Made by a program: the position numbers and the translations under genes | The notes under the pieces: model-generated | The model's database searches: none | What the model was told of the DNA's origin: nothing | Seen by the model: the letters and a program-made list of their open reading frames with translations, nothing else | Part shown: positions 1 to 22,883 of the stretch, piece by piece | Layout of the letters: the number at the start of each line of letters is the position of its first letter | Numbering within the stretch: the first letter of the stretch is position 1 | Virus record (IMG/VR): IMGVR_UViG_3300031991_000105 | Coordinates: 1-25,868 of that record | Reading direction: 5' to 3' (one strand) | DNA from: a virus | Taxonomy: Duplodnaviria > Caudoviricetes | Length of the DNA: 25,868 nucleotides

Positions 1-582
1 ATGGAACCCGGCCCTCGTTTCGGCGAAGCTCTCGCCTACGCCTCGCAATTGCATGCCCTGCAGAAACGCAAGCGGGCGGAAACCCCGTATGTCGCCCACC
101 TGCTGGCCGTGGCTGCCATCGTGCTCGAACACGGCGGCCACGAAGATGAAGCGATCGCCGCCCTGTTGCACGACGCGGTCGAGGATCAAGGCGGCATTCC
201 CACGCTGAATGAGATCCAGGAGCGGTTTGGCGCGGTCGTGGCCGAAATCGTCGCCGGCTGCACCGACGCCGACAAGATTCCAAAACCACCCTGGCGCGCC
301 CGCAAAGACGCCTATCTCGCGCACCTGCCCACCGCCAGCCGCTCGGTCCAACTCGTCAGCGCATCCGACAAGCTGCACAACGCCCGGGCTTTGTGCGAAG
401 ACTACCTGGCGTGCGGCGAATCCCTCTGGCAACATTTCAACGGCGGCCGCGACGGCACGCTCTGGTACTACCGCGAAGTCGTCAATCGCCTGAACAAATT
501 GCAAGGCACCGCACTTCTCGCCCAGCTTACCCGCGCCGTCGAAGAGTTGGAACGACTCGTCGCGAACGCTACCCGCGTTTAG
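1..582 (+). CDS. HD-domain hydrolase, Mesh1/SpoT-like small alarmone ((p)ppGpp) hydrolase family
   Basis: Motifs H..QKRK..ETPYVAHL, AALLHDAVED and SDKLHN, typical of stand-alone RelA/SpoT HD domains; 193 aa. Confidence 0.85.
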   Translation: MEPGPRFGEALAYASQLHALQKRKRAETPYVAHLLAVAAIVLEHGGHEDEAIAALLHDAVEDQGGIPTLNEIQERFGAVVAEIVAGCTDADKIPKPPWRARKDAYLAHLPTASRSVQLVSASDKLHNARALCEDYLACGESLWQHFNGGRDGTLWYYREVVNRLNKLQGTALLAQLTRAVEELERLVANATRV

Positions 583-706
583 CCCGGAGGCAACGCCGAC
601 GGTGTTTCGTGCTTTTAATGCGCTTCGCTTCACGCCCCGCGCGTCTGAACTCTCCAACGCGCCGTCGGCGATGCCTCCGGGCTAAACTTCGTCGTCCGAA
701 TTCTTC

Positions 707-738
707 CCCTGCGACTCTGCGCCTTTGCGTCTCTGCGT
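707..738. repeat. Four degenerate 8-bp tandem units (CTCTGCGN), host-type intergenic repeat
   Basis: CCCTGCGA CTCTGCGC CTTTGCGT CTCTGCGT read directly. Confidence 0.6.
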
Positions 739-784
739 TAATCTCCTCATTCTTCGCCCCTCGCAGAATCCAAAAAATATCTAG

Positions 785-814
785 TTGAAATCGAGCCAGC
801 ACTTTTAGTAGTGT
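785..814 (+). promoter_or_regulatory. Sigma70-like promoter, copy 1 of a conserved 30-bp motif
   Basis: TTGAAA, 18-bp spacer TCGAGCCAGCACTTTTAG, TAGTGT; A-rich upstream; near-identical copies at 11182 and 11311. Confidence 0.7.
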
Positions 815-828
815 GGCGTTTGTTGATT

Positions 829-866
829 GACGGGTATTGGCAGAGCCTGAGCACGACTCGGGTTTC
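829..866 (+). ncRNA. Putative cis-regulatory leader RNA element, copy 1
   Basis: GACGGGTAT-N5-GAGCC-hairpin-GGTTTC; same sequence and structure at 11573-11607, each followed by a terminator. Confidence 0.55.
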
Positions 867-870
867 CTAA

Positions 871-912
871 GGGCCCCTTGGCTGGAACGCGTTCCGGCCG
901 GGGCCCTTTTTT
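871..912 (+). terminator. Intrinsic terminator/attenuator in the 5' leader of the first operon
   Basis: GGGCCCC-TT-GGCTGGAA(CGCG)TTCCGGCC-GGGGCCC stem followed by TTTTTT. Confidence 0.8.
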
Positions 913-936
913 ATTGGATTGGCGGTTCGATTGACC

Positions 937-1512
937 ATGACGAATTCCAGATTGCAACTCGTTCCCTACCGCGACGCACGCGGGCAGATTCGCTGCGGCG
1001 ATTTGCTCCTGTTCCGCCGCCGCGGCCTGATTTCGATCGCCGGCCGTGGCGAGCACTCGCACGCCGCCAAGGCCGCCTGGTGGGGCGACGACCTGTTCTG
1101 CCTCGAAGTCCGCGAGTGGCACGGCGGCCGCGCGGTCACGTTGTCGAGCCAGGTGCAAAGATTTCCCGGCCGGATCGACGTGTTCGAAGTCAATCCGTTC
1201 GATCGCTGGCCGCACTACGATCGCGCCGCAGCCTCGGCCGTGATGCGGCGCCTGGCCGGCTGTGCCTACGGATATTCCGGGGTCGCGGCCGCCGCGCTGT
1301 TGCACCTGCCCGTCGTGCGGTTATTCGCCCAGCCCGACGTTCACGACGACGCAGCCTCGGGCCGGCCGCCGTTTTGCAGCCAGGCCTGCGCGATGAGCGA
1401 TCGCATCGGCGGCGGCGTCGATCCGGTGCCGCACCTGGCCGATCGCCTCACGCTGCCGGCCGACCTGGCCCGCAGTCCGTTCTATCGTTACCGCTTCACC
1501 CTCACGGCCTAA
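937..1512 (+). CDS. Permuted papain-like NlpC/P60 amidase (YiiX/YebB/YaeF-like)
   Basis: GDLLLF, HSHAA (His), Y-G-Y, FCSQ (Cys) and PADL motifs in permuted order; ATG at 937 chosen over TTG at 919. Confidence 0.75.
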   Translation: MTNSRLQLVPYRDARGQIRCGDLLLFRRRGLISIAGRGEHSHAAKAAWWGDDLFCLEVREWHGGRAVTLSSQVQRFPGRIDVFEVNPFDRWPHYDRAAASAVMRRLAGCAYGYSGVAAAALLHLPVVRLFAQPDVHDDAASGRPPFCSQACAMSDRIGGGVDPVPHLADRLTLPADLARSPFYRYRFTLTA

Positions 1513-1516
1513 AGCC

Positions 1517-2776
1517 ATGCAACGACTCACACACATCCTACTGTCGTGCCTGCTGGCCGTGAGGGTCGCGGCCGTTGGCCTGGCACAAACCGCGGATTGC
1601 CCGACAGGCGAATGCCCGCTGGCGCCACCGGCTGCGGCAAACGACATCGCCGTCGACTCACGCCCGATCGCGCGAATCGAAAACACCACGGCCGCCGGCC
1701 GCAGTTACGGCAGCGGAACACTCGTCGACGTCGATGGCTCCAGCGGTCTGGTCGTCACCTGCGCCCACCTGTTTCGCGAAGGAACCGGCACGATCATCGT
1801 GATGTTCCCCGAAAGCTCGCGTCACTCGGCACGGTTGGTCAAGATCGACCACGACGCCGACCTGGCGGCGCTTGCGATTTCCGTACCGGCGCTGGCGCCC
1901 GTGGAGATCGCCACCGACTATCCACAGCAGGGCGATCCGCTCGTCTCTTGCGGCTATGGCAGCGACGGCCGCCTGGGGTGCAATCGCGGACAGGTGCTCG
2001 GCTACGTGACTACACTGGGAAGCCACGGCCGCGAAACGCTCGAACTCAGCGGCTCGGCACGGCTGGGCGATTCGGGCGGACCGGTGCTCGATCGCCAAGG
2101 TCACTTGGTCGCCGTCTTGTTCGGCACGAACGGCCGCGTCGTCGATGCCACGTTCTGCGGCCGCGTGCGGCAGTTTTTGCAAGGCCTCTCGCCGCGATTC
2201 GGCGGCAGGGACAACTCCGCTCAGGCAAATGGCACGCCCGCCGCGCCACTCGAGAACCTCCCGCCGCGCATCCTCCGCCCGAACCGTCCGCGGCCCGACT
2301 CCCGGTCTCCCGCGAATCAACCGCCGGCCGCCGATCCTTTAGGTCGCGCCGCGGATGCCGTGGGCCGCGCTGCCCAGCCGTGGCTCTCCGCAAAACTCGC
2401 CGCGCTGCTGATCTCGGTCGGCGTGCCCGGGGGGATCGCCGGAGTCGCCGGCGGCGCGATCGTGTGGCTGGCCATGCGCCGCGGAAAGAAGAAGCTGCAC
2501 GCCCAACTCGATCGCTTGCAAAGCCGCACGACGACCAAGAGTGATTCAGATTACATCACCGACAATACCGAACACGTCGAGCCGGCGCAACAACGCATCA
2601 TCGCGCGGCACCACAATCGCTACGTGGCCTATGAGGCCGGCTCGATCGACAAAGCCTGGGCCGCGGCACACGCACGGGTCGGCGAAAAGTACCCCGGCGC
2701 CGTCCCGTATCTCAAGATCGTCGAAGGGGTCAAAGATCAGTTGCTCTCGGGCATTGAAGAACCACAACTTTCCTGA
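1517..2776 (+). CDS. Secreted trypsin-like (S1) serine protease with Pro-rich linker and C-terminal hydrophobic segment
   Basis: N-terminal signal-like hydrophobic stretch; catalytic triad motifs TCAHL, DADLA, GDSGGPV; hydrophobic LAALLISVGVPGGIAGVAGGAIVWLAM followed by RRGKKK. Confidence 0.85.
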   Translation: MQRLTHILLSCLLAVRVAAVGLAQTADCPTGECPLAPPAAANDIAVDSRPIARIENTTAAGRSYGSGTLVDVDGSSGLVVTCAHLFREGTGTIIVMFPESSRHSARLVKIDHDADLAALAISVPALAPVEIATDYPQQGDPLVSCGYGSDGRLGCNRGQVLGYVTTLGSHGRETLELSGSARLGDSGGPVLDRQGHLVAVLFGTNGRVVDATFCGRVRQFLQGLSPRFGGRDNSAQANGTPAAPLENLPPRILRPNRPRPDSRSPANQPPAADPLGRAADAVGRAAQPWLSAKLAALLISVGVPGGIAGVAGGAIVWLAMRRGKKKLHAQLDRLQSRTTTKSDSDYITDNTEHVEPAQQRIIARHHNRYVAYEAGSIDKAWAAAHARVGEKYPGAVPYLKIVEGVKDQLLSGIEEPQLS

Positions 2777-2790
2777 AGGAGTTTTTGCAC

Positions 2791-3654
2791 ATGGCTACGG
2801 CACAACCGCTGTTCACGACCGACGAAATCCTCTGGTACGACAACGGCAAGTGGGGTGAGGTGGGCTATGCGATCGCCAACCCCAACGGCAAGATCTGGAC
2901 CAACAACAGCGTCATCTTCCAGTTCCACAGCCTGATCGGCCGCAACATGTTCGAGTTGATGCACCGCACCGACGTGCGGTTCTACGGCGCGCCGCACAAA
3001 CAGTTCTGGTTCGACCTGCATCAGCTCATCATTACCGCTCGCAAACGGCTGGCCGACCGGCAGCGACTGCCCAACGATTCGAACGGCCTGGTCGTCGAGC
3101 ACGCCTCGCCGGCCCCGCAGGTGTTCCTGGCCTGGCCGATTCCGTTCTTCGGCGAGCGCGTGCGCCAGCCCGACATCCGCGAGTACGCGCAGCTTGCGCT
3201 GCTGATGCTCTCGGAAATGATGCAGCACTCGGAGAACGAGCTGCCGACCTACATCACCGACAGCTTCGCGGCCAAGATCGGGCAGTACCTCCGCGAAATC
3301 CTGGCGCTGATGGCCACGAAGTATTTTGGCTACAGCCGGGCTCAGGCCTACGAACCGGCCTTCGCCCTGCAGGCTAGCGACTTCGCCAACTACGATCCCT
3401 CGAAGGTGATGACGAGCGTCGAGATGACCGAAGAGCGGCCGCCGGTGCAATGGTGGCCGACCGAGTCCGACCTGAGCGCGATTCGCGCAATTCCCTACAA
3501 CGAGGCGCTCGTGTTGGCGAAACGCTGGCCCGCTACCGCCCTCTTGGGCAGTGGAACGTTCGGCGTGCCAACCGGCGCGTCGCTCTCGTCGTCGAATGGT
3601 CCGGCGCCCGCCGCCACGGCGGCGTTCGTCGACGCCCCGGGCCAGGCCCCGTAG
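2791..3654 (+). CDS. Hypothetical protein (287 aa, helical)
   Basis: Shine-Dalgarno GAAGGAG at 2775-2781, ATG at 2791, strong GC3 codon bias; no recognisable motif. Confidence 0.75.
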   Translation: MATAQPLFTTDEILWYDNGKWGEVGYAIANPNGKIWTNNSVIFQFHSLIGRNMFELMHRTDVRFYGAPHKQFWFDLHQLIITARKRLADRQRLPNDSNGLVVEHASPAPQVFLAWPIPFFGERVRQPDIREYAQLALLMLSEMMQHSENELPTYITDSFAAKIGQYLREILALMATKYFGYSRAQAYEPAFALQASDFANYDPSKVMTSVEMTEERPPVQWWPTESDLSAIRAIPYNEALVLAKRWPATALLGSGTFGVPTGASLSSSNGPAPAATAAFVDAPGQAP

Positions 3655-3683
3655 CTATTTCTAACGCAGGAGGATTGCCGGCC

Positions 3684-3935
3684 ATGCCGTTTTCCGATTG
3701 GAGTTTCATCGTGGGGGCCGCGCTGTCGGTAGCGCTAACGGCCGGCCCGTGGATGTTCAAAGTGCACGCCAAGCTGGCCGTGATCGCCAGCAAGATCATC
3801 GACCTGTGCGAGAAGCTGGAGCGGACCGACGACGATCATCGCCGGCTGTGGGAAGTCTGCAGCCGGCACGCGTCGCGGCTCGACACCCACGACGTGCAGC
3901 TCTCGCACATCGCCGAGCGATTGCGCGGCGAGTGA
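3684..3935 (+). CDS. Small membrane protein with one TM helix and a coiled coil; holin-like candidate
   Basis: SD AGGAGG at 3668-3673; 83 aa; hydrophobic WSFIVGAALSVALTAGPWMF followed by a charged heptad region. Confidence 0.6.
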   Translation: MPFSDWSFIVGAALSVALTAGPWMFKVHAKLAVIASKIIDLCEKLERTDDDHRRLWEVCSRHASRLDTHDVQLSHIAERLRGE

Positions 3936-3957
3936 CAAATCGAGTCGTGCTCCTCCC

Positions 3958-4058
3958 GGTCAGCCCCCGGCTCCGCCGGGGGGCCGTTGCCTGTGCCGCA
4001 TTCGATCGAACTTGTTACGTCGCGACGAAGTACCCCCCGGCAAAGCCGGGGGCTGACC
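3958..4058. repeat. Inverted pair of REP-like palindromes
   Basis: GGTCAGCCCCCGGCTCCGCCGGGGGG (3958-3983) and its reverse complement with 2 mismatches (4033-4058); each unit is itself a hairpin. Confidence 0.8.
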
Positions 4059-4093
4059 AGACGAAACGCAAATTGCTTTTACAGGACTCCACC

Positions 4094-4651
4094 ATGCAAA
4101 TTCGCGATCGAATTCGTGAGCTTCGCCGCGTGCGGGCCGATTCGCTTTGCCCGCACCCGCGCAACTGGCGGACCCATCCACGAGCTCAGCAGGATGCGAT
4201 GCGCGGCGTACTCTCCGAGATCGGATACGCCGACGCGCTCCTGGCCCGCGAACTGTCCGACGGCTCGCTGCAATTGCTCGACGGCCACCTGCGAGCTGAG
4301 CTCACGCCCGAGTCGCTCGTTCCGGTGCTCGTGCTCGACGTGAACGACGAGGAAGCGCTCAAGCTGTTGGTCACACTCGACCCGCTCGCTGCCGAGGCCG
4401 AAACCGACCAACAACTGCTCCGCGGGCTACTCGACGACGTGCATACCGACAGCGAAGCGCTGGCGGCGCTGCTCGCATCGCTGGCCGAGGAAAACCCGCT
4501 CGAGGCCGAACTCGACCAGGCGGCACCCGCCGATCCGATCGTGCCCGAGAGCTTTCAAGTCGTCGTGCTGTGCGACGACGAGGAGCAACAGCGCGAAGTG
4601 TATGAGCGCATGAAGTCCGAAGGTTTCAAGTGCCGTGTCCTTTCCTTATAG
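4094..4651 (+). CDS. ParB/Srx N-terminal-like domain protein, phage packaging-associated type
   Basis: L.PHPRNWRTHP...IGYADALL...LLDGHLR motifs; ATG at 4094 after AGGA; short C-terminal beta/alpha domain (FQVVVLCDDEEQQ). Confidence 0.8.
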   Translation: MQIRDRIRELRRVRADSLCPHPRNWRTHPRAQQDAMRGVLSEIGYADALLARELSDGSLQLLDGHLRAELTPESLVPVLVLDVNDEEALKLLVTLDPLAAEAETDQQLLRGLLDDVHTDSEALAALLASLAEENPLEAELDQAAPADPIVPESFQVVVLCDDEEQQREVYERMKSEGFKCRVLSL

Positions 4652-4668
4652 ATTCTTGTGAGCCAGCC

Positions 4669-5778
4669 ATGCCGATGATTCAGGCGGAAGTAGATTGTCC
4701 GGTGCACGATTCGTTTCGCGTGCAGCAAGTGGCCGGCATGTTCGACGTGCCGCTGGCCGAACGGTCGGCGCGATCGTTTGCCGTGGAGGTTCCCGGTGTC
4801 GACGAGGATTGGCAGATCGGCCTGATCGTCGGTCCCTCGGGAAGCGGCAAGACCACGATCGCCCGACAAGCATACGGCGGCGAGCTGGCCGAGGCCGCGG
4901 CCTGGCCAGCAGATCGCGCCGTCGTCGACGGCTTCGGTTCCCTCTCCGCGCGGCAGATTACCGGCCTGCTCACGGCGGTCGGCTTCGGCTCGCCTCCGGC
5001 CTGGGTGCGTCCGTATCACACGCTCAGCCGCGGCGAGCAATTCCGCTGCGACCTCGCCCGGGCGCTCGCTGCGGGAGTCGAACGAACAAGCAGACAGTCA
5101 TCCGGCGACCTGCCGCTGGTTGCGTTCGACGAGTTCACCAGCGTCGTCGATCGCAACGTGGCGCAATTCGGCTCGGCCGCGATTGCCAAGGCGATTCGCG
5201 CCGGCCGCATTCCCTGCCGTTTCGTGGCGGTGACCTGTCACTACGACGTCGCCGAGTGGCTCGAGCCCGACTGGATCGTCGACATGCAGCTCGGCACCTG
5301 CCAGCGGAGGCGCCTTCGGCGGCCCGCAATTGAACTCGAATTGCGCCGCTGCCACCGCCGCCTCTGGAAGTTGTTTGCGCCGCATCATTATCTGAGCGGC
5401 AACCTGAACCGCGCCGCCCGCTGCTATGCCGCCTGGTGGAAAGGGCTGCCCATCGCGTTTTGTGCCACGCTGTCGGCAATCGGCCGCAAGAATCATTGGC
5501 GCATCAGCCGCCTGGTCACACTTCCCGACTTTCAAGGCGTCGGCATCGGCACCCGCGTGGCCGAGGCCGTGGGCCAACTGTACCGCGCGGCCGGTTGCCG
5601 CCTGAATATCACCGCCAGTCACCCGGCGCTAATCGCCCACTGCGCGCGTTCACCGCTGTGGCGCACCGTGCGCGTGCTTCGCTCGGGAGCCGGCGACACG
5701 CGGCATCTCGAGCGAGGTTACCGCAGTTCGGCCGGGCGTAGCGTGGTCTCCTTCGAATACCTGGGAACACAATCGTGA
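4669..5778 (+). CDS. ABC-type ATPase fused to a GNAT/Mom-like acetyltransferase
   Basis: Walker A GPSGSGKTT, signature LSRGEQFR, Walker B VAFDEF, H-switch AVTCH; C-terminal FAPHHYL and RLVTLPDFQGVGIG acetyl-CoA motif. Confidence 0.85.
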   Translation: MPMIQAEVDCPVHDSFRVQQVAGMFDVPLAERSARSFAVEVPGVDEDWQIGLIVGPSGSGKTTIARQAYGGELAEAAAWPADRAVVDGFGSLSARQITGLLTAVGFGSPPAWVRPYHTLSRGEQFRCDLARALAAGVERTSRQSSGDLPLVAFDEFTSVVDRNVAQFGSAAIAKAIRAGRIPCRFVAVTCHYDVAEWLEPDWIVDMQLGTCQRRRLRRPAIELELRRCHRRLWKLFAPHHYLSGNLNRAARCYAAWWKGLPIAFCATLSAIGRKNHWRISRLVTLPDFQGVGIGTRVAEAVGQLYRAAGCRLNITASHPALIAHCARSPLWRTVRVLRSGAGDTRHLERGYRSSAGRSVVSFEYLGTQS

Positions 5779-6245
5779 ATGAACGCGAAGAACCGGCCAA
5801 GACGCCTTATCTCGACGAAGTCAAACAGAGCGCGATCTGCGCCGTGCTGGCCATGGGGGGCACCCGGGCCATCGCCGCCTCGTACGTCGGCTGCCATCCC
5901 GACACGATTCGCAACACCGAGCTGCGCGACGAAGCCTTCGCCCAGGCGCTCGAAGCCGCCGAATCGAAGCACGAAGTGTCGCAACTTTCCCACATCAACA
6001 ACGCGGGCCGCGAAGGCCGCCACTGGCGCGCCGCGGCCTGGGTGCTCGAGCATCGTTATCCGTCGCGCTATGGAAAGCGTCGTCCCGATCTGTTCACGCT
6101 CGAACAGGTGTCGCACGTGCTTACGCAGTTCGCCGAAGTGATCCTCGACGAAGTCACCGACTCCGAAGCGCGCGAAAAGATCCTTGCTCGACTGGCCGAA
6201 CTCACCACCGGCCTGCAGTCCGACGCCGCGGGAGAAAACCCATGA
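5775..6245 (+). CDS. Terminase small subunit-like HTH protein
   Basis: HTH GGTRAIAASYVGCHPDTIRN, WRAAAWVLEHRYP motif; 4-bp overlaps with both neighbours; directly upstream of TerL. Confidence 0.65.
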   Translation: MNEREEPAKTPYLDEVKQSAICAVLAMGGTRAIAASYVGCHPDTIRNTELRDEAFAQALEAAESKHEVSQLSHINNAGREGRHWRAAAWVLEHRYPSRYGKRRPDLFTLEQVSHVLTQFAEVILDEVTDSEAREKILARLAELTTGLQSDAAGENP

Positions 6246-7849
6246 AACTCGCTGCCAGTTGGAATCGCGAAGGCATCTCCACGGCCGCCTGGGCCGAACT
6301 CGCGCTGCATCTCAGGGCCTGCGTCGCGCGCCGCGTGCGCTGCGAAGGCAGCGACCGCCAGCCGCTGCTCGATTGGGGCCGCCGCTACCTGCCGCATTAT
6401 CTCCAAAAGCCTCCCTCGGGCATGCACGTCTGGCTGGCCGATCAACTCGACGCCATTACCACCCAGCGCGGCAGCAAGCTCAACGTCATCGGTCCCCGCG
6501 GCGGCGCCAAGAGCACAATCGGCACGCTCGCCTACGCCCTCCGTGCGGCCGTCGAAGGCTGGGAGCCGTATATCTGGATCCTTTCCGACACCAGCCGCCA
6601 GGCCGCCGCGCACCTCGAAAACCTCAAGCTCGAACTAACCACCAACCGCTTTCTGGCTGCCGACTACCCGCAAGCCGTCGACGAAGGGCCGATGTGGCGT
6701 ACCGCCGCGATCCGCATGAACAACGGCGTCACGATCGAATCCTACGGCACCGGCCAGCGCGTTCGCGGCAAACGCGTCGGCGAGTATCGGCCGACGCTGA
6801 TCATTTGCGACGACCTGCAAAACGACGATCACATGCGCTCGGTCACCGCCCGCGAAACGTCGGTGCGGTGGTTCGAAGGCACGCTCCTTAAGGCCGGCAC
6901 GCCGCAAACGAACTTCGTCAACCTGGCCACCGCATTGCACCGCGACGCGTTGGCGCTCAAACTCGACCGCACGCCCGGCTGGACATCGCGAGTCTTCCAG
7001 GCCATCGGCCGCTGGCCCGACAACATGAGCTTGTGGCACGAGTGGGAGCTCTTGTACTGCGACCTCGATCGCGAAGACGCGCAGTCGGCCGCGCAGGCGT
7101 TCTACAACGAGCACCGCGCGGAAATGGACGCCGGAGCCGAACTCCTGTGGCCCGAGTTCGAAAGCTTGTACACGCTGATGCAGATGCGCGTCGAAGGAGG
7201 ACGCACGGCGTTCGAACGCGAAAAGCAAGGTTCGCCGCTTGGTCCCGATGCCTGCGAATGGCCGGCCGACTACTTCGATGAGCATCTCTGGTTCGACGAG
7301 TGGCCCGGCAATTTGCGACTCAAAGTCGTGGCTCTCGACCCCAGCAAGGGACGCGATGCCCGCCGCGGCGACTTTTCAGCGTTCGTCCTGCTGGGCGTCG
7401 ACTCCGAAGGTTTGCTGTACGTCGACGCCGATTTGCAACGCCGGCCCACGCCCGAGATGGTGGCCGCGGGCGTCGAGCATTGCCGCGTGTTCCGCCCCGA
7501 CGCGTTCGGTGTCGAAAGCAACCAGTTCCAAGAGCTATTGGCCGACGAGTTCGCCGCGGAGTTTCGCCGGCAGGGGATGGTCGACGTGCATCCCTGGAGC
7601 ATCGACAACCGCGTCAACAAGGCCGTCCGCATCCGCCGGCTCGGCCCATATCTTTCCGGACGGCGCCTCCGCTTCAAACACGATTCGCCGGGTGCGAGGC
7701 TGCTGGTCGAGCAGCTTCAAGAGTTCCCGGCCGCCGACCACGACGACGGACCCGACGCGCTGGAAATGGCCATCCGCCTGGCCGGCGAACTGCTGGACGG
7801 CAACGCCGCAGGCGACAACCTGGGCGAGCGACTGCCGGTTGAAGCGTGA
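6242..7849 (+). CDS. terL: Phage terminase large subunit
   Basis: Walker A PRGGAKST, Walker B LIICDD, RNase H-like nuclease motifs VALDPS, GDFSA and HDDGPDA. Confidence 0.92.
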   Translation: MKLAASWNREGISTAAWAELALHLRACVARRVRCEGSDRQPLLDWGRRYLPHYLQKPPSGMHVWLADQLDAITTQRGSKLNVIGPRGGAKSTIGTLAYALRAAVEGWEPYIWILSDTSRQAAAHLENLKLELTTNRFLAADYPQAVDEGPMWRTAAIRMNNGVTIESYGTGQRVRGKRVGEYRPTLIICDDLQNDDHMRSVTARETSVRWFEGTLLKAGTPQTNFVNLATALHRDALALKLDRTPGWTSRVFQAIGRWPDNMSLWHEWELLYCDLDREDAQSAAQAFYNEHRAEMDAGAELLWPEFESLYTLMQMRVEGGRTAFEREKQGSPLGPDACEWPADYFDEHLWFDEWPGNLRLKVVALDPSKGRDARRGDFSAFVLLGVDSEGLLYVDADLQRRPTPEMVAAGVEHCRVFRPDAFGVESNQFQELLADEFAAEFRRQGMVDVHPWSIDNRVNKAVRIRRLGPYLSGRRLRFKHDSPGARLLVEQLQEFPAADHDDGPDALEMAIRLAGELLDGNAAGDNLGERLPVEA

Positions 7850-7852
7850 GGA

Positions 7853-8001
7853 GAAGGATGAAGGCAGAAGGATGAAGGATGAGTAAGACAACAAGCACAC
7901 TAACCCGACGCGCCAGCGAGGGAGAACCAGTCTCCCCTCTCCCGCGCGAATAGTTCACTACGGGATATGCGCGATCGCGGGAGAGGGGTCGGGGGTGAGG
8001 G
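7853..8001. repeat. Cluster of host-type intergenic repeats between terL and portal
   Basis: Four GAAGGAT-like heptamers (7853-7880); TAACCCGACGCGCCAGCGAGGG unit (7901-7922); perfect 13-bp inverted repeat CCCCTCTCCCGCG (7934-7946) / CGCGGGAGAGGGG (7976-7988) followed by TCGGGGGTGAGGG. Confidence 0.7.
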
Positions 8002-8093
8002 CTCTTCGAGTCCCATATCAACCGACCGCCCATGAAATTATGCAACTGTGCCACTAAAACAAAACACTTCAATGGCTTGGCAAGGAGTTGGGT

Positions 8094-9515
8094 ATGACAG
8101 TCAACGGTTTCGCAGAACACGACCTCACCGAAAAACTGAACCGCCGGCTCTCCGAAGCCTGGCAGGGCCTGTGGGATAGCTTCGTCGATCCGCACGAAGC
8201 CTATGCCGATACGCCCGGCGAGTGGCTGGCGCTTGGATCGGGTGGCACAGCGACGGCTTCCCTGCCGTTTGCCAACGAGCAGCAGCTCGGCGAGTTGCGC
8301 GCCCAATGCCGCTCTCTGGCCGTGGAGAACGAGTTCGCCATCAACGGCCACGAGAACCGCGTCAGCTTTCTCGTTGGCCCGGGACACACCTATCGGGCGA
8401 CGGCAAAAAAAGGCCGTACCGCGGCGGTCGAACTGGCCGGCCAGGTGCAAGACGTGCTCGACGGGTTCGTCGCCGACAACCTCTGGCATCGCCGGCAGCA
8501 GGAGATCGTCCGCCGCTACGATCGCGACGGCGAAGTCTTCCTGCGGTTCTTTGCCACCGGCGACGGCCAAACCCGCGTCCGTTTCGTCGAACCCGGCCAG
8601 GTGGCCACGCCGAAAGAACTCGCCGGCGATTCGGCCGCCAGCTTCGGCATTCAGACCGAGCCCGACGACGTGGAAACGCCCATCTCCTACTACGTCGACG
8701 GCAGTCCGGTCGACGCCGCCGAGATCCAGCACCGCAAGGCCAACGTCGATGTGAACGTCAAGCGCGGCCTGCCGCTGTTCTATCCGGTGCGCAAGAACCT
8801 CCGCCGCGCGGAAAAGTTGCTGCGGAACATGAGCGTCGTGGCCGAGATCCAATCGGCGATCGCCCTGGTCCGCAAGCATCGCGGCGGCACCCGGGCCAGC
8901 GTGCAGCAGTTCGCCACCGCGCAGGCCGACGTCAGCATCACCTCGCCCACCAGCGGCCAGACGACGAACTTTCGCCGCTTCGGCCCCGGCACGATTCTCG
9001 ACAGCCACGGCGGCATCGAATACGACTTCCCCGCCTCGGGCCTCGATGCCGCCAACTTCGTCACGATTCTGCAGGCCGAGCTCCGCGCCATCGCCAGCCG
9101 CCTGGTGATGCCCGAGTTCATGCTTACCTCCGACGCCTCGAACGCGAACTACGCGTCGACGATGGTCGCCGAAGGCCCGGCGATGCGGATGTTCGCTCGC
9201 CTACAGGCGGAGCTGGTGCGCGACGATCTGCACGTCATGCGGCGCGTGCTGGAAAACGCCGTCGCAGCGGGCGTGCTGCCGCAAACGGCGCTCACCGAGA
9301 TCGAAGTGCAGGCCGCGCCGCCCATGCTGGCCGTTCGCGATCCGCTCGAAGAGGCGCAGGCCCTGCGCATCGAATACCAATGCGGCATCCTCTCGCCGCA
9401 AACCTGGAGCCAGCGCCGCGGGCTCGATTACGACCAGGAACAAACCAACTGGCGCGAAGCTAAACGGAACGTCGAATCGGGTCTCCCAGCCGGCCATGCT
9501 CCGATTTCCATATAG
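8094..9515 (+). CDS. Phage portal protein (lambda-like family)
   Basis: SD AAGGAG; follows TerL; RDGEVFLR, KRGLP and DASNANYAS motifs; about 473 aa. Confidence 0.88.
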   Translation: MTVNGFAEHDLTEKLNRRLSEAWQGLWDSFVDPHEAYADTPGEWLALGSGGTATASLPFANEQQLGELRAQCRSLAVENEFAINGHENRVSFLVGPGHTYRATAKKGRTAAVELAGQVQDVLDGFVADNLWHRRQQEIVRRYDRDGEVFLRFFATGDGQTRVRFVEPGQVATPKELAGDSAASFGIQTEPDDVETPISYYVDGSPVDAAEIQHRKANVDVNVKRGLPLFYPVRKNLRRAEKLLRNMSVVAEIQSAIALVRKHRGGTRASVQQFATAQADVSITSPTSGQTTNFRRFGPGTILDSHGGIEYDFPASGLDAANFVTILQAELRAIASRLVMPEFMLTSDASNANYASTMVAEGPAMRMFARLQAELVRDDLHVMRRVLENAVAAGVLPQTALTEIEVQAAPPMLAVRDPLEEAQALRIEYQCGILSPQTWSQRRGLDYDQEQTNWREAKRNVESGLPAGHAPISI

Positions 9516-9605
9516 CTGCCGATGACCGGCAGAGGAGTGTGTTGCGGTCCCGCGTGTCACTTGCCACAATTGGGGGACGGGAATTTAGGCAGTGGCGGGG
9601 ATCCT

Positions 9606-10445
9606 ATGCAGGCTGAAATTCGACGAGTGCATCGTTTCCATCGGATTCATCGCATTCTTGACTATGCGATAAACTGTTGGCCGTCATGGTTTGGCGGATT
9701 GCTGAGAGTCATCTCGCCAATGTCTTTGTGGCTAATTGCCGCGTTTGTCGCTCTCATTCGATTTACCGATCCGACCGATCAGGATGGACTTCCGAAATGG
9801 TTGCTCGACTATTTGACATTCATCCACCACAGAAGGTTTGTCATTGTCGTGGGACTGATCGCCGTTCAGGCAGCTTGTCAGGGGTTGTTATGGATAGGCA
9901 AACGGCTCCGTCGTCCTGACTCGATGAAGATCGGCTCCGTGCTTGACATGCTGGTTTCCCAGGTTTTCCCAGAACAAGATCGACGAAACCACGTCTATCG
10001 TGCAACCCTCTTCAAAGTACGTTCATGCTGGTTCTGCGGGAGTTGGCTCGGCATCGTTTCAAGATCCGGAAAAATGTATCCTCAAAAAACAACGGTGTTC
10101 TGCGTTAGTGGGAAAACCCGGGCTAACTGTACCGGTATTGCTGGCGAATGCTGGCGGCAGGACGGGTTAACCTATATTGGTTCTCTGCCTGAATGCAGAA
10201 GTGATCCAGTCCCTGACGAATTGCTGAACGAATACAAGCTAGCGGGTTGCTTAGATGATCGTGAGCTTGCAATAATGAATGTGAAATCGACAGTATTTCT
10301 GGCGACTGGCATTCGAGTTGCTGGCCGGCTTTGGGGAATCGTAGTGGCGGATAGCACGGACTTGTCTACACTGCCGAAGCAACTAAAGCGCCACGAGGGA
10401 GCCCTAGATTTTGCAGCTGTGTCGATCGAACAGTTGGTGACATAG
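9606..10445 (+). CDS. Membrane protein with two TM segments and a possible GAF-like C-terminal domain (insert gene)
   Basis: Two hydrophobic segments; GIAGECW and GIRVAGRLWGIVVADST resemble GAF elements; AT-richer codon usage; start uncertain (9606 or later). Confidence 0.6.
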   Translation: MQAEIRRVHRFHRIHRILDYAINCWPSWFGGLLRVISPMSLWLIAAFVALIRFTDPTDQDGLPKWLLDYLTFIHHRRFVIVVGLIAVQAACQGLLWIGKRLRRPDSMKIGSVLDMLVSQVFPEQDRRNHVYRATLFKVRSCWFCGSWLGIVSRSGKMYPQKTTVFCVSGKTRANCTGIAGECWRQDGLTYIGSLPECRSDPVPDELLNEYKLAGCLDDRELAIMNVKSTVFLATGIRVAGRLWGIVVADSTDLSTLPKQLKRHEGALDFAAVSIEQLVT

Positions 10446-10464
10446 CAACCGATGAGGTGAAAGA

Positions 10465-10890
10465 ATGGAACGCTACATTTGGGTAAACCCCGATCGACTT
10501 GAAGACACGCAGAAGAAAGTCGGATTAGACTTTCTTGTTGAGTTGTCGCCATATGATGTCCCGAAGGGCATTACCGGCACTTATTCGCCAGGGGACGGTC
10601 ATTTTCTTATTGAGTTTGAATACATAGACAACGAACCGCCGGTGGTCTCAGAGACGACTCATGGAGTTCGTGTGTTTCAAGGAAAGCACAGTGGAAAGCT
10701 TTTGCGACTAGTTATCCCCATAGACACTCCGCCCCTCGACACTGCGGGGGCCATTCGGTTGAGGACAAATGTTCTTGACGCGGTGGGCGGGATGTCTAGT
10801 GGAAAGCGAAGCGGACGAATGAATCGTCGAGTGACAAAGAAACTACTAGCCGACCGTCTTGACGAACTCACTGTCGACTTGGTGAGCTGA
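10465..10890 (+). CDS. Hypothetical protein (insert gene)
   Basis: SD-like GAGGTG upstream; 141 aa; AT-richer than flanks. Confidence 0.65.
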   Translation: MERYIWVNPDRLEDTQKKVGLDFLVELSPYDVPKGITGTYSPGDGHFLIEFEYIDNEPPVVSETTHGVRVFQGKHSGKLLRLVIPIDTPPLDTAGAIRLRTNVLDAVGGMSSGKRSGRMNRRVTKKLLADRLDELTVDLVS

Positions 10891-11181
10891 TTCGCCTTTC
10901 TTGCTTCCATGCGGCTCTTCCCGCAATCACTGTTCTCTGTCCGTGCAACAATTGCTGAAGTCCAGTAGTGCACGAGATACCTCGCCTCGATTGTCACTCG
11001 AGCGCACGGGCAGTGTCGCTAGCGGGCACTCGGATCGTCAGCGTTTGCGAGCACCCTAGAAGACTCACGATAGGTCTCTTGGGACCGTTGAGTCGTTCCA
11101 CAGCATTGAGATGCGGATAGGAGAATCCGATCGATGGTTCGAATGGTGTACTGGTGCGGAGAAAGGTGAGAAAGAAGTACA

Positions 11182-11211
11182 TTGAAATCGAGCCAGCATT
11201 TCTAGTAGGTT
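11182..11211 (+). promoter_or_regulatory. Promoter motif, copy 2
   Basis: TTGAAA-TCGAGCCAGCATTTCTAG-TAGGTT. Confidence 0.65.
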
Positions 11212-11310
11212 GGGACACCAAGCAAATGTCGTTCAACGGTGAATTAAGCCAAGGGGGCGACACCGGCCTCCCGAACCGCGAAAAAAATCCGCTCGCGACG
11301 AAAAAACAAA

Positions 11311-11340
11311 TTGAAATCGAGCCAGTGTTTCTAGTAAGTT
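11311..11340 (+). promoter_or_regulatory. Promoter motif, copy 3; likely drives a leaderless mRNA
   Basis: TTGAAA-TCGAGCCAGTGTTTCTAG-TAAGTT; A-tract upstream; 7 nt separate the -10 hexamer from the ATG at 11348. Confidence 0.72.
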
Positions 11341-11347
11341 CAGAATC

Positions 11348-11536
11348 ATGACAAGCAAACGGCATTCGACCGCGAATCAAACCAAGGTGGCCCGCGTGCG
11401 AACGGCCTGCGAAGAGTTGTTCGAGCAGGTGCTGCGGGAAGGTTTTCACGGCGTTGCCAAGCTGGAACTGGTGATCGCCGACGGCACGATCCAAACGATC
11501 TGCCGAGCGGTGGAACAGATCGACAAACGAAACTAG
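11348..11536 (+). CDS. 62-aa small protein resembling DUF2292 (YezD/OscA-like); candidate regulator
   Basis: Helix followed by GFHGVAKLELVIADGTIQTICRAVEQIDK, similar to the G.v.i.v.DG.v.qI...Ek pattern; lies between promoter and leader RNA. Confidence 0.65.
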   Translation: MTSKRHSTANQTKVARVRTACEELFEQVLREGFHGVAKLELVIADGTIQTICRAVEQIDKRN

Positions 11537-11543
11537 CGGGGCA

Positions 11544-11607
11544 GGGGAGCGGAAACGCTCTCCACGTCTCGCGACGGGTATCTCGACGAGCCTGCCTGGC
11601 AGGTTTC
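11544..11607 (+). ncRNA. GNRA hairpin plus putative leader RNA element, copy 2
   Basis: GGGGAGCG-GAAA-CGCTCTCC (11544-11563), then GACGGGTAT-N6-GAGCCTGC-CTG-GCAGGTTTC (11573-11607). Confidence 0.55.
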
Positions 11608-11612
11608 ATTGC

Positions 11613-11654
11613 GGGCCCATTTGCCGGTGAATTCGGCAGATGGGCCCTTTTTTT
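11613..11654 (+). terminator. Intrinsic terminator/attenuator upstream of the head genes
   Basis: GGGCCCATTTGCCG-gtgaatt-CGGCAGATGGGCCC followed by TTTTTTT. Confidence 0.85.
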
Positions 11655-11695
11655 ATCGCCCTAGGAAACTCAGAACGCCCAAGGAAACCCAAACG

Positions 11696-12445
11696 ATGGA
11701 CGAACACCTGCAAGAATTCGTGAGTTCGCGAGGCGTCGACGTGCGCGTCGACCGCGCCGCCGGCATCATTCGCGGCGTCAAGCTGCTGGGACTCGAATCG
11801 CGCAACGGCCGCCGCTATCTCCCCGCGGCGCTCGAGCAGGCCGCGGCCCTTTACGAAGGAGCCAAGGTCAACGTCAACCATCCCAAGGGGAGCCCGCTGG
11901 CGGCCCGCGACTATCAAGATCGCCTGGGCGCGATCCGCAACGTCCGCCAGGTGACGGGAGGCATGTTCGGCGACTTGCACTTCAATCCCAAGCACGCCCT
12001 GGCCGAGCAGCTTGCCTGGGACGCCACGCACGCTCCCGAGAACGTGGGCTTTTCGCACAACGTAGAAGCCCGCACCTCGCGACAAGACGGACGCACGATT
12101 GTCGAAGCGATTCTCAAAGTGCAAAGCGTCGACCTGGTCGCCGACCCGGCCACCACCCGCGGCCTGTACGAGAGCGCCGAGTCGGTCGTCGGCGAGTCGA
12201 CGTCCGTCTGGCTCGGATCGGTCACGTTGGAATCACTGCAGGCCGCCCGGCCCGACCTGGTGGAAGCGGTCCGTGCCGAATCGGCCGCCGAGCTCACCAG
12301 CCTCCGCGAGGAAGTGACCCGCTTGCGGACCGAATCGCTCACCCGCCAGGGCCGTGGCGTTCGTCCCGTGTCGCGCGAACAGCAACACAGCGAACCGCGC
12401 CCGGCGGTGCTCGATGCCCGTGGCTTCGCCCGTGCAATTTCCTGA
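11696..12445 (+). CDS. Prohead maturation protease (T4 gp21-like) with short scaffold-like tail
   Basis: SRNGRRY, NHP, GFSH and VDLVADPA motifs; SD AAGGA; between portal and capsid genes. Confidence 0.78.
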   Translation: MDEHLQEFVSSRGVDVRVDRAAGIIRGVKLLGLESRNGRRYLPAALEQAAALYEGAKVNVNHPKGSPLAARDYQDRLGAIRNVRQVTGGMFGDLHFNPKHALAEQLAWDATHAPENVGFSHNVEARTSRQDGRTIVEAILKVQSVDLVADPATTRGLYESAESVVGESTSVWLGSVTLESLQAARPDLVEAVRAESAAELTSLREEVTRLRTESLTRQGRGVRPVSREQQHSEPRPAVLDARGFARAIS

Positions 12446-12507
12446 AACAGCATCACCCGAAACAGAATTTTCCATATTCACAAGTCCACTTCACGGAGAA
12501 CCCACTG

Positions 12508-12984
12508 ATGGCCAACACGATGCGCTGGAGATATGGCGAAACCAACCCGGTTGTGATTCCGGTCGCCTCGGCGACGGTGATCGAGATCGGCGACCTGGTC
12601 TACCTGGATACCACGGCTAAGCCGGCCGGAGCCCTGACCTATGGCGCCAGCCTGGCGTCCACGCAGGAATCATTCCACGACAAATTCATCGGCGTGGCGA
12701 TGCAGCAATCGCGCGGCGGCGACACGGCCGACATCCGCGTGGCGACGACCGGCGTTTTCGAGTTCCCCTGCGCTTCCGCCGCGTTCGAAGTCGGTGCTCG
12801 CCTGGGCGTCGACGACAACGTCGCCGGCAACGCACTGTTGGATCAACAGGTGATCGCCGTCAACGTGGCTAACCCCGAGCTGTCGATCGGCTACTGCGCC
12901 AAGCGCGTCAATCCGGCCGCCACTTCGGTGCTGGTCGACGTCATCGGCACGCTCACTCACGCCGGCCCGCAAGCCGTGGCCTAG
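12508..12984 (+). CDS. Capsid decoration/cement protein
   Basis: 158 aa, beta-rich (IEIGDLVYL, FIGVA, VATTGVFEF); typical position between protease and MCP; SD GGAG. Confidence 0.65.
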   Translation: MANTMRWRYGETNPVVIPVASATVIEIGDLVYLDTTAKPAGALTYGASLASTQESFHDKFIGVAMQQSRGGDTADIRVATTGVFEFPCASAAFEVGARLGVDDNVAGNALLDQQVIAVNVANPELSIGYCAKRVNPAATSVLVDVIGTLTHAGPQAVA

Positions 12985-13038
12985 CGCCGCGATCCGCAAC
13001 CCTAATACGACAACTACTTCAAGCAGGAGACCTACGAC

Positions 13039-14196
13039 GTGATCAATACTCGGGAACTCAAACGCCGCTACGAACTGGACGGTCCGCGGCAGACCATCAC
13101 CCATCTGACCGAAGCGCTCGAGCAGCGGCATCTGCGGGCCGAGGATTTCAGCATTCGCGACCTGGCTGAAGGGCTCGTGCCCGACGGCCACGAATGGGTG
13201 CGGCTGATGGATCCGCGCAGCGGCGGCAGCGTGCGGCTGCTCGAAGCCGGCGAAGGGGTCGACGCGACCGCCTTTTTGAACGTGGCCAGCCAGGTCATCT
13301 ACTCCAAGATCATGGAGGCCTACACCCAGGAGGCATTCGTCGTCTCGCGGCTGGTCGACACGATTCCCACGCGGCTCGACGGCGAAAAGATTCCCGGCAT
13401 CGCGGGCCTGGCCGCCGAAGACCACGTCGTCCATCCGGGCATGCCCTATCCGAGCGTCGGCTTCGGCGAGGATTACATCGAAACGCCGTCGACGACCAAG
13501 CGTGGCTTCATCGTGCCCGTGACGAAGGAAGCGATCTTCTTCGATCGCACGCACCTGGTGCTCACCCGCGCGGCCGAAGTCGGCGAGCTGCTCGGCCTGA
13601 ACAAGGAAAAGCGGTTGGTCGACCTCGTGATCGGGGCCACCAACAACTACAAGTGGCTGGGCACGACCTACAACACCTACCAGGCGGCCGCGCCCTGGAT
13701 CAATGTCAAGACCGGCAACGAGCTGGTCGATTGGACCAACGTCGACGTCGCCGAGCAGTTGTTCGCCGACATCCTCGACCCCAACACGGGCGAGCCCGTG
13801 CTGCTCTCGGCCAGCACGGTGCTGGTCATGCCGGCCTATCGTCATGCGGCACATCGCGTGTTCAACGCCGTGGAAGTCCGCTTCAACCCGACGAGCTCGG
13901 CCACGACGACGCTCGCGGCCAATCCGCTGTCGAACTACCAGGTGCTGGAAAGCCGGCTGGCGTATCGCCGTGTGATCGCGGCCGGCACCGCCGCCGCCGA
14001 CGCCAAGAAGTGGTGGTTCCTCGGCGACTTCAAGAAGGCGTTTGCCTACATGGAGAACTGGCCGATCACCGTCACCCAATCGGCGGCCGGCAGCGAGGCC
14101 GACTTCAACCAGGACATCGTCGTGCGGTTCAAGGCCAGCGAGCGGGGCGCGGCGGCCGTGCTTAATCCGCGGTTCGTCGTCAAGTGTACCGGTTAG
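13039..14196 (+). CDS. Major capsid protein (HK97 fold)
   Basis: 385 aa, SD CAGGAG with GTG start, strong codon bias; KRGFIVPVTKEAIFFD, WFLGDF and GAAAVLNPR patterns; position in head module. Confidence 0.85.
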   Translation: MINTRELKRRYELDGPRQTITHLTEALEQRHLRAEDFSIRDLAEGLVPDGHEWVRLMDPRSGGSVRLLEAGEGVDATAFLNVASQVIYSKIMEAYTQEAFVVSRLVDTIPTRLDGEKIPGIAGLAAEDHVVHPGMPYPSVGFGEDYIETPSTTKRGFIVPVTKEAIFFDRTHLVLTRAAEVGELLGLNKEKRLVDLVIGATNNYKWLGTTYNTYQAAAPWINVKTGNELVDWTNVDVAEQLFADILDPNTGEPVLLSASTVLVMPAYRHAAHRVFNAVEVRFNPTSSATTTLAANPLSNYQVLESRLAYRRVIAAGTAAADAKKWWFLGDFKKAFAYMENWPITVTQSAAGSEADFNQDIVVRFKASERGAAAVLNPRFVVKCTG

Positions 14197-14206
14197 AAGA
14201 CGCTTG

Positions 14207-14268
14207 TTGAGGGGGGACCGGGGAGCGCGGGTGTCTGCCATATCACGCGCGCCCCCGGTACCTCTCAG
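14207..14268 (+). other. Long GC-rich stem-loop after the capsid gene, without a U-tract
   Basis: TTGAGGGGGGACCGGGGAGCGCG pairs imperfectly with CGCGCGCCCCCGGTACCTCTCAG. Confidence 0.55.
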
Positions 14269-14297
14269 CGAACAGACATCCACATTGAAAGATCAGC

Positions 14298-14513
14298 ATG
14301 AGCAACCTCGAACAGATCGAAACCATCAAGACCAACACGCTTGCCCAGATGGCGGCCGTGTCGGCCGAGCGCAAGCCAACCTATACCGAAAACGGCCAGT
14401 CGTTCGCCTGGACCGAATATCTCAATCACTTGCAGCGGCGCGTCGACTGGTGCAACGAGCAACTCGCCGCTGAAGAACCGTTCGAAATTCCCACACAAGG
14501 ATACACGCCATGA
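14298..14513 (+). CDS. Head completion/adaptor protein (gpW-like)
   Basis: 71 aa helix-hairpin-helix with KPTYTENGQSFAWTEYL; immediately after MCP. Confidence 0.6.
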   Translation: MSNLEQIETIKTNTLAQMAAVSAERKPTYTENGQSFAWTEYLNHLQRRVDWCNEQLAAEEPFEIPTQGYTP

Positions 14514-14827
14514 ACTTCGCCCCTGACATTGCGGAAGACTGCCTGCTGGTCGACGGTACCGAAACGGTCACGCTCCATTCCGCTTCCGCCGTCACTGTGA
14601 ACGGAGCCAAACGCGGACTGCTCACCCTGGCGGAAATGGAATTCCGCCAGGTCGGCTTGGAATCGACGGACCTGGCCTGGAATCTTCCCGACGTCAACCT
14701 GGCGGGAATCGAACCGCGCCGCGGCGACACAATCGAGGACTCTCTCGGCGTTAGTTGGACGATCCAGAGCGTCACGCGGTCGCCGCTGTCCGGTGTCTGG
14801 CGGGCAGTCACCCGCCGCCACGTCTAA
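14510..14827 (+). CDS. Head-tail joining/stopper protein (gpFII-like)
   Basis: 105 aa, beta-rich with PRRGDTI...WTIQSV; ATGA overlap with the previous gene. Confidence 0.6.
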   Translation: MNFAPDIAEDCLLVDGTETVTLHSASAVTVNGAKRGLLTLAEMEFRQVGLESTDLAWNLPDVNLAGIEPRRGDTIEDSLGVSWTIQSVTRSPLSGVWRAVTRRHV

Positions 14828-14904
14828 GGTTTGCAGATCGCTCGTTTTTCCTACGGTTTCGCTCCCCTGAAACGGACGCGCGGCTCGCGCCGCGCACTTG
14901 AACT

Positions 14905-15420
14905 ATGATTTCCATCGCTCCCGCCACGCTCGACGATAGCAACAGCATCGTCGCCTTGTGGAACGCCAAACGTCTGGACGCCTCTTCGTGTTGGTACACG
15001 GCCGAAGCCATCGACGAGAGTTACATCAGCCAGTTGCTGGCCGCGGGCATGTACCTTGCGCTGGCCCGCGTTGACGGGGTTCCTACGGGTTTTGGTCTCT
15101 GGTGTGCCTCGGGGGGCGACGCGAGGCTGGTCGCGCTGGCTGCCGACGACCCCGCCGTCTACTACCGCCTGATGGCCGAGTACTGCACCTGGGGCCTGGC
15201 CGCGGAGTTTACCTCGGGCTTTGCCGAGCTCGGCACGACGGCCACAACCGAACGCGCGCGAATGGATGCGCTCGAAGTCATTCAATACGTCACGATCGGC
15301 TTCGAACCGCTTCTTCCGGGGCAAACTGCGGAGCAGCGGGTACCCCGTCTGCTGCGAGCCGAGTGCGAACTGACGGTCCTCGCGCAGGCCGTGGCCTCGG
15401 TACTGGAGGGCCTGTCGTGA
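14905..15420 (+). CDS. Hypothetical protein, possibly a degenerate GNAT fold
   Basis: N-terminal ISIAPATLDDSNSIVALWN and YLALARVDGVPTGF resemble GNAT strands 1-3; no clear acetyl-CoA motif. Confidence 0.55.
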   Translation: MISIAPATLDDSNSIVALWNAKRLDASSCWYTAEAIDESYISQLLAAGMYLALARVDGVPTGFGLWCASGGDARLVALAADDPAVYYRLMAEYCTWGLAAEFTSGFAELGTTATTERARMDALEVIQYVTIGFEPLLPGQTAEQRVPRLLRAECELTVLAQAVASVLEGLS

Positions 15421-16727: not shown

Positions 16728-16745
16728 ACAGGAGAACGATCGACC

Positions 16746-17669: not shown

Positions 17670-17699
17670 TCGACCTTCATTCATTTCATTGGACGAGCC

Positions 17700-18428: not shown

Positions 18429-18464
18429 ACATCGAACGCAAACCACAGAACACCGTTTAGACCT

Positions 18465-22876: not shown

Positions 22877-22883
22877 GAAGAAA

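Follow-up and report, generated by a model that had tools for sequence, protein, structure and literature searches.

A tandem leader RNA that overlaps predicted terminators in a phage-like gene cluster, and a small protein that may act on it

We analyzed a stretch of 25,868 nucleotides from a virus (Duplodnaviria; Caudoviricetes), which is positions 1 to 25,868 of the IMG/VR record IMGVR_UViG_3300031991_000105. (We refer to this whole stretch as the window.) A scan of its 25 proteins found terminase, portal, head protease-like, cement, capsid, and tail-tube genes and no integrase or replication gene. These genes lie in two operons and, as an earlier note on this DNA had claimed, the same leader cassette stands before each operon (833–912 and 11577–11654). 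Judging from the sequence, we think that the cassette is likely a protein-dependent transcription antiterminator, and that it is probably switched on by the DUF2292-like protein of 62 amino acids (aa) that is encoded next to copy 2. The features are:

785–814, + strand: predicted promoter P1, TTGAAA, an 18-bp spacer with the conserved element G(A/G)GCCA(G/C), and TAGTGT (from sequence)
833–875, + strand: antiterminator core, copy 1, with A1 (GGTATT) at 833–838, B1 (GAGCC) at 843–847, A2 (GGTTTC) at 861–866, and B2 at 871–875 (from covariation and folding)
843–866, + strand: hairpin H1 of copy 1 (from folding and covariation)
871–912, + strand: predicted intrinsic terminator, copy 1, with a GGGCCC stem at 871–906 and T6 at 907–912; its 5' arm starts with B2
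937–9515, + strand: operon 1, with two peptidase-like or unknown genes, ParB-like, ABC-GNAT, the small and large subunits of terminase, and portal
11182–11211, + strand: promoter P2a, a duplicate; the sequence behind it resembles, by eye, the 5' end of the small gene in decayed form
11311–11340, + strand: predicted promoter P2b, TTGAAA-N18-TAAGTT
11348–11536, + strand: gene for the 62-aa protein, with a predicted helix (8–28) and β-hairpin (35–57); a candidate RNA-binding antiterminator (from homologues and a structural model)
11577–11617, + strand: antiterminator core, copy 2, with A1 (GGTATC) at 11577–11582, B1 (GAGCC) at 11588–11592, A2 (GGTTTC) at 11602–11607, and B2 at 11613–11617
11613–11654, + strand: predicted intrinsic terminator, copy 2, with a stem at 11613–11647 and T7 at 11648–11654
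11696–25868, + strand: operon 2, with head protease-like, cement, major capsid, tail tube, large unknown proteins, and glycosyltransferases

One promoter-like sequence, TTGAAA-N18-TAnnnT, occurs once before operon 1 and twice before operon 2. (Positions 11182–11260 are a partial tandem duplication, comprising the second promoter and, in decayed form, a repeat of the small gene's first ~45 nt.) The earlier note placed each cassette between a promoter and the first large gene. This position is conserved, but copy 2 is not directly behind its promoter: the open reading frame (ORF) for the 62-aa protein lies between P2b and copy 2, directly upstream of the cassette. The inner stems of the two copies were said to differ in sequence and still pair, and this is borne out. 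The minimum free energies correspond to z scores of -3.56 and -4.38, and 0 of 200 shuffled sequences were equally stable. The two cassette terminators are the two longest terminator-like stems within positions 1–13000, and a search of the window with the covariance model described below found these two copies only (both are in its training set). What the earlier note missed was the tandem, dyad design of the RNA, the antiterminator helix over the terminator, the adjacent small protein, and the wider regulon.

A tandem core with two exclusive folds

We gathered relatives of the locus by protein anchoring (33 + 19 viral loci and 80 metagenome loci). The core that is conserved among them is GGTATC-N4-6-GAGCY-hairpin-GGTATC-N4-6-GAGCC-terminator, or A1-B1...A2-B2. 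In other words, the unit GGUAUC-N4-6-GAGCC occurs twice in tandem. The core is ~40–60 nt long and the whole cassette is ~80–115 nt. The earlier note had instead taken GACGGGTAT as the conserved start of the cassette, which did not hold up: the GACG prefix is not conserved, and its matches in viral contigs look like chance. (The pattern GACGGGTAT-GAGCC matched 119 loci in viral contigs, and the cassette was in none of them.) Two other strings from that note, GGTTTC and GGGCCC, are present in the window but are only local variants of GGTATC and GAGCCC.

A loose pattern for the cassette had 42 matches in the window and 52 protein-anchored loci taken together (some of these loci are the same contig), and it had no matches in 251,878 control bases. 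(Across 251 Planctomycetia genomes, the loose pattern was too noisy, with similar counts in the controls, and we used the covariance model instead.) We also scanned GTDB blindly with the tandem core, with no terminator in the pattern. With about half of the collection covered, there were at least 120 loci, which we split by record label. Among the matches listed, 71 of the 78 Planctomycete-labelled ones run into a terminator that starts at B2 (1 does not, and 6 are incomplete at the end), versus 9 of the 42 others by the same loose criterion (32 lack such a terminator, and 1 is incomplete at the end). Two of those nine carry the small gene and the head protease and are probably mis-binned.

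The earlier note had called for a covariance model built from homologues and for a search of Rfam. We built the model from 37 copies, with only hairpin H1 and the terminator in it; the outer helix described below was left out. It gave 274 matches, 259 of them unique, which comprise 100 listed genome matches and most of the protein-anchored loci (training copies included). Within H1 and the terminator, 14 of 17 pairs covary. As for Rfam 15, no family reached the gathering threshold in the window (the best E value was 5.2, for copy 1) or on the related cassettes. The claim of a new structured, cis-acting leader with a predicted intrinsic terminator, in a conserved position, is therefore supported, and we have little doubt that the cassette is a real and new RNA family.

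The two tandem units can pair in a nested way. The inner halves, B1 and A2, close H1 (1239 of 1257 cells pair). The outer halves, A1 and B2, form a second copy of H1's 5-bp helix, with its U-G wobble and bulged purine (1281 of 1293 cells pair across the 259 unique copies). The antiterminator is thus a dyad, with two identical helices on either side of an open internal loop. The terminator stem has B2 at its base as well, and the RNA can therefore form either the outer helix or the terminator, not both. By computation, then, the leader has an antiterminator hairpin that is mutually exclusive with an overlapping predicted intrinsic terminator. We also considered an ANTAR-like arrangement with a side-by-side A2:B2 hairpin, and it fits less well: 1166 of 1257 cells pair, and there are 37 A-C and 14 C-A mismatches.

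At the closing pair of the outer helix, 13 of the 14 copies with B2 = AAGCC have A1 = GGTATT, and the C of A2 is retained. On the head-protease tree (which holds 145 of the 151 head-type copies), we count about four origins of this change, plus five further sites, and T-G wobble intermediates occur beside some of the clades or in sister lineages. (The Fisher value for this change is uncorrected for descent.) Two other outer pairs each have a single double change (L392 and L423). Among the 100 genome-derived copies, 98.2% of the outer-helix cells pair and there are 8 two-sided changes; none of 500 shuffles reaches either value.

Folding predictions suggest which structure wins. For a nascent transcript that ends just after B2, the median probability of the outer helix is 0.69 (257 copies), and it is 0.98 for copy 1 and 0.997 for copy 2 of the window. 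In the full RNA, the terminator fold is favoured by a median of 10.5 kcal/mol (5th–95th percentile, 5.7–19.4; 257 copies). For copy 1, the terminator fold is at -43.7 kcal/mol versus -31.9 with the outer helix forced, and for copy 2, it is at -43.9 versus -29.0. Given this predicted advantage of about 10 kcal/mol for the terminator, a factor acting in trans is likely needed.

The small gene and the regulon

The 62-aa protein has the conserved motifs G(F)xG and QDG-I-Q-I-R-R. Its homologues number 464 at 90% clusters and 570 at 50% clusters, and among those listed, most are stand-alone proteins of ~60 aa. The predicted structure is one helix and a β-hairpin (predicted local distance difference test, or pLDDT, of 84.6). 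We found no clear match in PDB sequences, Foldseek's PDB or viral databases, PHROGs, or GenBank phages, and a structural search of the model with VIA-align gave a best Z of 4.5, again with no clear match. (The absence of a structural match is no evidence for a new fold.) No CAT, PRD, or ANTAR family was among the Pfam matches of 36 members of the small-protein family or of the window's proteins.

The small gene and the RNA usually occur together. We found 112 loci anchored on the head protease, left out 24 with under 600 nt of upstream sequence, and scored the other 88: 71 have both the gene and the RNA, 12 have the gene only, 2 have the RNA only, and 3 have neither. At the 12 gene-only loci, the cassette's terminator is not visible either. 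Two of the three loci with neither (L143 and L150) have a divergent ORF and a different antiterminator-like hairpin that overlaps a terminator. The RNA pattern also led us to a separate 91-kb viral contig, where a relative of the 62-aa ORF lies directly upstream of a cassette, between two large genes that we take to be portal and protease/capsid. (On this contig, at L351:3950–4300 on the minus strand, no ATG, GTG, or TTG precedes the conserved helix of the small ORF, which may start instead at a CTG behind a GAGAGG site.)

Across 150 Pirellulales genomes, the RNA is present in 88, with 1–11 copies per genome, and the gene in 79. Both are found in 75 genomes, the RNA only in 13, the protein only in 4, and neither in 58. 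Carriers include the cultured Aeoliella (loci L197 and L310). The small gene is nearly always single-copy, versus up to 11 copies of the RNA, which implies that it acts in trans. We checked 9 of the 13 RNA-only genomes, and in 2 of them, a contig ends just upstream of the head operon.

The cassettes lie before the phage-like terminase/portal operon, before the head-tail operon, and at scattered toxin-immunity loci. Of the 259 copies, 151 are before the head protease and 34 are before recognisable operon-1 genes; the others are before variant starts of operon 1, at distant loci, or incomplete. In a scan of 63 proteins, the distant loci included nuclease toxins (AHH, WHH, Tox-SHH, and Tox-REase-2, with two matches below the cut-off) and immunity partners (SMI1/KNR4, Imm11, and DUF2019). 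Many of the 63 have no family, and a few look unrelated. Polymorphic nuclease toxin-immunity pairs lie under this leader at L475, L477, L483–L486, L488, L490, L491, and L200, and many of these pairs have a W(D/N)xxxHPR...G.F motif. At L200, such a gene directly follows the portal gene. Another distant locus, L473, has a lone cassette before two genes with no Pfam match, far from the main cluster; by their size and a CxxC motif, these genes look like tail-assembly chaperones.

The targets share a promoter type as well as a leader. With a strict pattern, the promoter lies within 130 nt of 45 of the 105 non-head cassettes, and the toxin-immunity loci carry it with GGCCA(G/C) included. This spacer element is found in the window and at most related loci, often with GTGGCCAA upstream of the -35 box. 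The element implies separate control of initiation and suggests a DNA-binding regulator or a dedicated sigma factor for the whole regulon.

The 62-aa protein may be a distant relative of DUF2292/YezD (PF10055), although by sequence the link is weak. The two have the same size and the same predicted helix-G-beta-QDG-beta layout, and the nearest named Atlas cluster to the small protein is DUF2292, at 0.76 (a lead only). The RNAs downstream are also similar. Among Bacillota DUF2292 loci, 12 of 23 have a G(C/T)TGAC-stem-GAGGC hairpin within 200 nt downstream, and all 12 hairpins overlap a pattern-defined terminator, versus 3 of 622 control windows with the same hairpin-terminator. (These 12 are L631–L639, L642, L647, and L659. 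Two Bacillota DUF2292 genes have a SAM riboswitch upstream, which is not on the hairpin. The genes that follow often look, by eye, like sulfur-assimilation enzymes.) This hairpin has a GYU/GGC helix and a GA..GA core. Aligned by eye and without statistics, GCU-G-AC/GA-GGC and GGU-A-UC/GA-GCC are one compensatory swap apart. A difference is that the DUF2292 RNA has one site and the cassette RNA has two. Among Planctomycete DUF2292 genes, 11 of 23 have the hairpin, and at L493–L512, these genes have repeats of a GCCGAC...GAGGC hairpin behind them, most of which lack a terminator. The DUF2292 family may act in other ways too. In genomes G002, G091, and G099, the DUF2292 family search matched loci other than the small gene. 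The DUF2292 hairpins have no match in Rfam. The Pseudomonas member of the family is called OscA. In the literature that we searched, we found no functional description of DUF2292, YezD, or OscA (one search was swamped by unrelated words).

Mechanism and rival explanations

We propose that the outer helix would form first in the nascent RNA and would then lose to the terminator, so that the predicted default is OFF. The 62-aa protein, probably as a homodimer, would grip the two-fold symmetric RNA and hold B2 while the polymerase passes the U-tract. The small gene lies upstream of the second gate and shares the promoter type of its targets, and therefore, once the promoters are induced, a single protein would let transcription into both operons and into the scattered toxin-immunity loci at the same time, presumably in trans. 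The antiterminator would then act as an additional lock on a programme that is costly and probably lytic. A broader idea, which we offer as speculation, is that DUF2292/YezD-like proteins of ~60 aa form an unrecognised, cross-phylum group of RNA-binding antiterminators, which stand alone and recognise a GSU-R-WC / GA-GSC helix. In Pirellulales, a dyad-doubled version would serve a domesticated phage particle as its master switch; the particle would be expressed together with polymorphic nuclease toxins from other places on the chromosome and would deliver them.

Several results weigh against the proposed pairing of protein and RNA. Most pairs of the outer helix are near-invariant, and its covariation rests mainly on one pair; among the 100 genome-derived copies, the number of covarying outer pairs was no better than in shuffles (345 of 500), and 12 outer-helix cells are mismatched (such as AGTATC with GAGCC, at L489). 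No RNA is found downstream at 12 of the 83 loci with the small gene. The co-occurrence across genomes is confounded, as the gene and the RNA are in one cluster and the genomes are related. Of the nine RNA-only draft genomes that we checked, seven have no match to the head protease, and G004 (a single contig of 7.8 Mb, from outside the 150-genome sample) has two intact cassettes and no match to the small gene, the protease, or the tail tube. These genomes could either hold remnants or be evidence for another factor. The link to DUF2292 is weak: the Pfam match is below the curated cut-off and is found for 1 of 36 members (E = 0.18), and aligning the small family to DUF2292 with hhalign gave a probability of 79% and a pairwise E of 1.6e-5 over 34 columns. 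Also, only 1 of the 11 Planctomycete DUF2292 hairpins has a terminator.

The RNA switch could be real and yet have another partner (a host protein, a metabolite, or a small RNA), while the 62-aa protein does another job, such as binding the GGCCA(G/C) promoter element or assembling the particle. Cassettes do persist in genomes with no detectable small gene, the gene persists at 12 loci without the RNA, and the conserved promoter-spacer element needs some factor. We still consider this unlikely, because the order of gene and then RNA recurs in the separate viral contig, at the divergent L143 and L150 with a different RNA, and for Bacillota DUF2292, where it precedes non-phage genes such as sulfur-assimilation-like ones. 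Also, the core is compact, with two-fold symmetry and variable loops, which seems unlike a ligand pocket. We favour a protein-bound antiterminator over a ligand-binding riboswitch. A different possibility is that the small protein binds the RNA and promotes termination (negative autoregulation), and that during transcription the RNA folds by default into the antiterminator. In nascent RNA, the outer helix should, by prediction, form unaided (the median probability of 0.69), and at L407, the cassette is upstream of the small gene itself. But the dyad site exists only in the antiterminator fold, so that binding should stabilise that fold, and the terminator is already favoured by 5.7–19.4 kcal/mol (5th–95th percentile). 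This explanation seems quite improbable.

It is also unlikely, in our judgment, that the RNA is a loading site for processive antitermination (like nut, put, or conAn), at which the RNA and the small protein would modify the polymerase and make it read through this terminator and later ones of the 9–14 kb operons. A protein gene and then a cis RNA at the start of a long mobile-type operon is the layout of conAn (PMC8191782), which we see at 71 of 88 loci, and long structural operons with processive antitermination are documented for a gene transfer agent, or GTA (10.1101/2024.11.20.624540). For our cassettes, the overlap of the outer helix with the terminator arm is enough for local action, and every target, even a two-gene toxin locus, has its own copy. 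The conAn2 RNA is described as 260–600 bp long, processive, and acting only in cis, in conjugative elements (PMC8191782). In contrast, our core is far shorter, overlaps its own terminator, and has up to 11 sites per single gene.

Known systems and other genes of the window

Local antiterminators are a short list: CAT, ANTAR, HutP, and a few more. Antitermination by the 62-aa protein, as we propose it, likely works as BglG/LicT-RAT or ANTAR do but belongs to neither. In the CAT-RAT systems (BglG, SacY, and LicT), an RNA hairpin over an intrinsic terminator is held by a small dimeric protein domain, and one protein can serve several leaders (PMC12591593), much as we predict for the cassettes. 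CAT is a 55-aa four-stranded sheet that is fused to PRD domains and tied to sugar uptake (PMC12591593), whereas the small protein stands alone, is modelled as a helix with two strands, has no match to CAT, and would bind a different RNA with an explicit dyad before phage-like targets. ANTAR proteins bind, as dimers, a twice-repeated RNA element that overlaps a terminator, and they form regulons (PMC3369931). The cassettes resemble these in the repeated element over a terminator and in the regulon. But the ANTAR RNA is two side-by-side hairpins with conserved loops (PMC3369931), while our covariation favours nested helices (B1:A2 inside A1:B2) with variable spacers, and there is no ANTAR or sensor domain. 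Q-like proteins and BrrG load via DNA and a -10-like pause (10.1101/2024.11.20.624540). They share only the task, which is predicted here, of using a leader terminator to gate capsid genes in a phage-derived cluster; the conserved determinant in our case is an RNA structure.

As for the toxins, MuF phage-capsid polymorphic toxin systems have nuclease toxin-immunity pairs that are linked to remnants of terminase, portal, and capsid genes (PMC3482391). Planctomycetes are absent from the MuF row of the table in that paper. Our loci also tie such pairs to phage head genes, but by a shared promoter and leader at distant loci. None of the 63 scanned proteins matches the MuF domain, although several N-terminal regions have no Pfam family.

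The literature that we searched (subscription journals and some supplements were outside its scope) has no description of this RNA, the 62-aa protein family, or the cluster, and searches for phage small-protein antiterminators and for Planctomycete phage-like clusters gave no matching description. We found neither DUF2292 nor any of four short motif strings in six supplementary files of PMC10690425; its files 1, 2, and 4 were outside the search, and the RNA may be an unnamed candidate there.

If our proposal is correct, the local antiterminators would gain a new protein-RNA pair, DUF2292/YezD would gain a testable function, and the pair, at 62 aa plus a 45-nt site, would make a compact gene switch. 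The RNA would also define a regulon by sequence, in which a phage-like cluster that is conserved, single-copy, and present in about half of the sampled Pirellulales genomes is co-regulated with scattered toxin-immunity loci. Such a regulon suggests an undescribed GTA-like or toxin-carrying particle.

Other parts of the window are also of note. Between portal and the head promoter (9522–10890) are two genes without a Pfam family, in a region that varies among relatives; these are possibly a moron or a toxin/immunity remnant. At the end of operon 2 (20285–25868) are a Cys/Thr/Pro-rich protein of 863 aa and two GT2 glycosyltransferases, and the particle may be glycosylated. Between the late genes, at 22870–23010 and 24940–25075, arrays of CCCTAA-like 6–7-mers lie opposite short inverted copies, and similar heptamer arrays are found in the intergenic DNA of many related loci.

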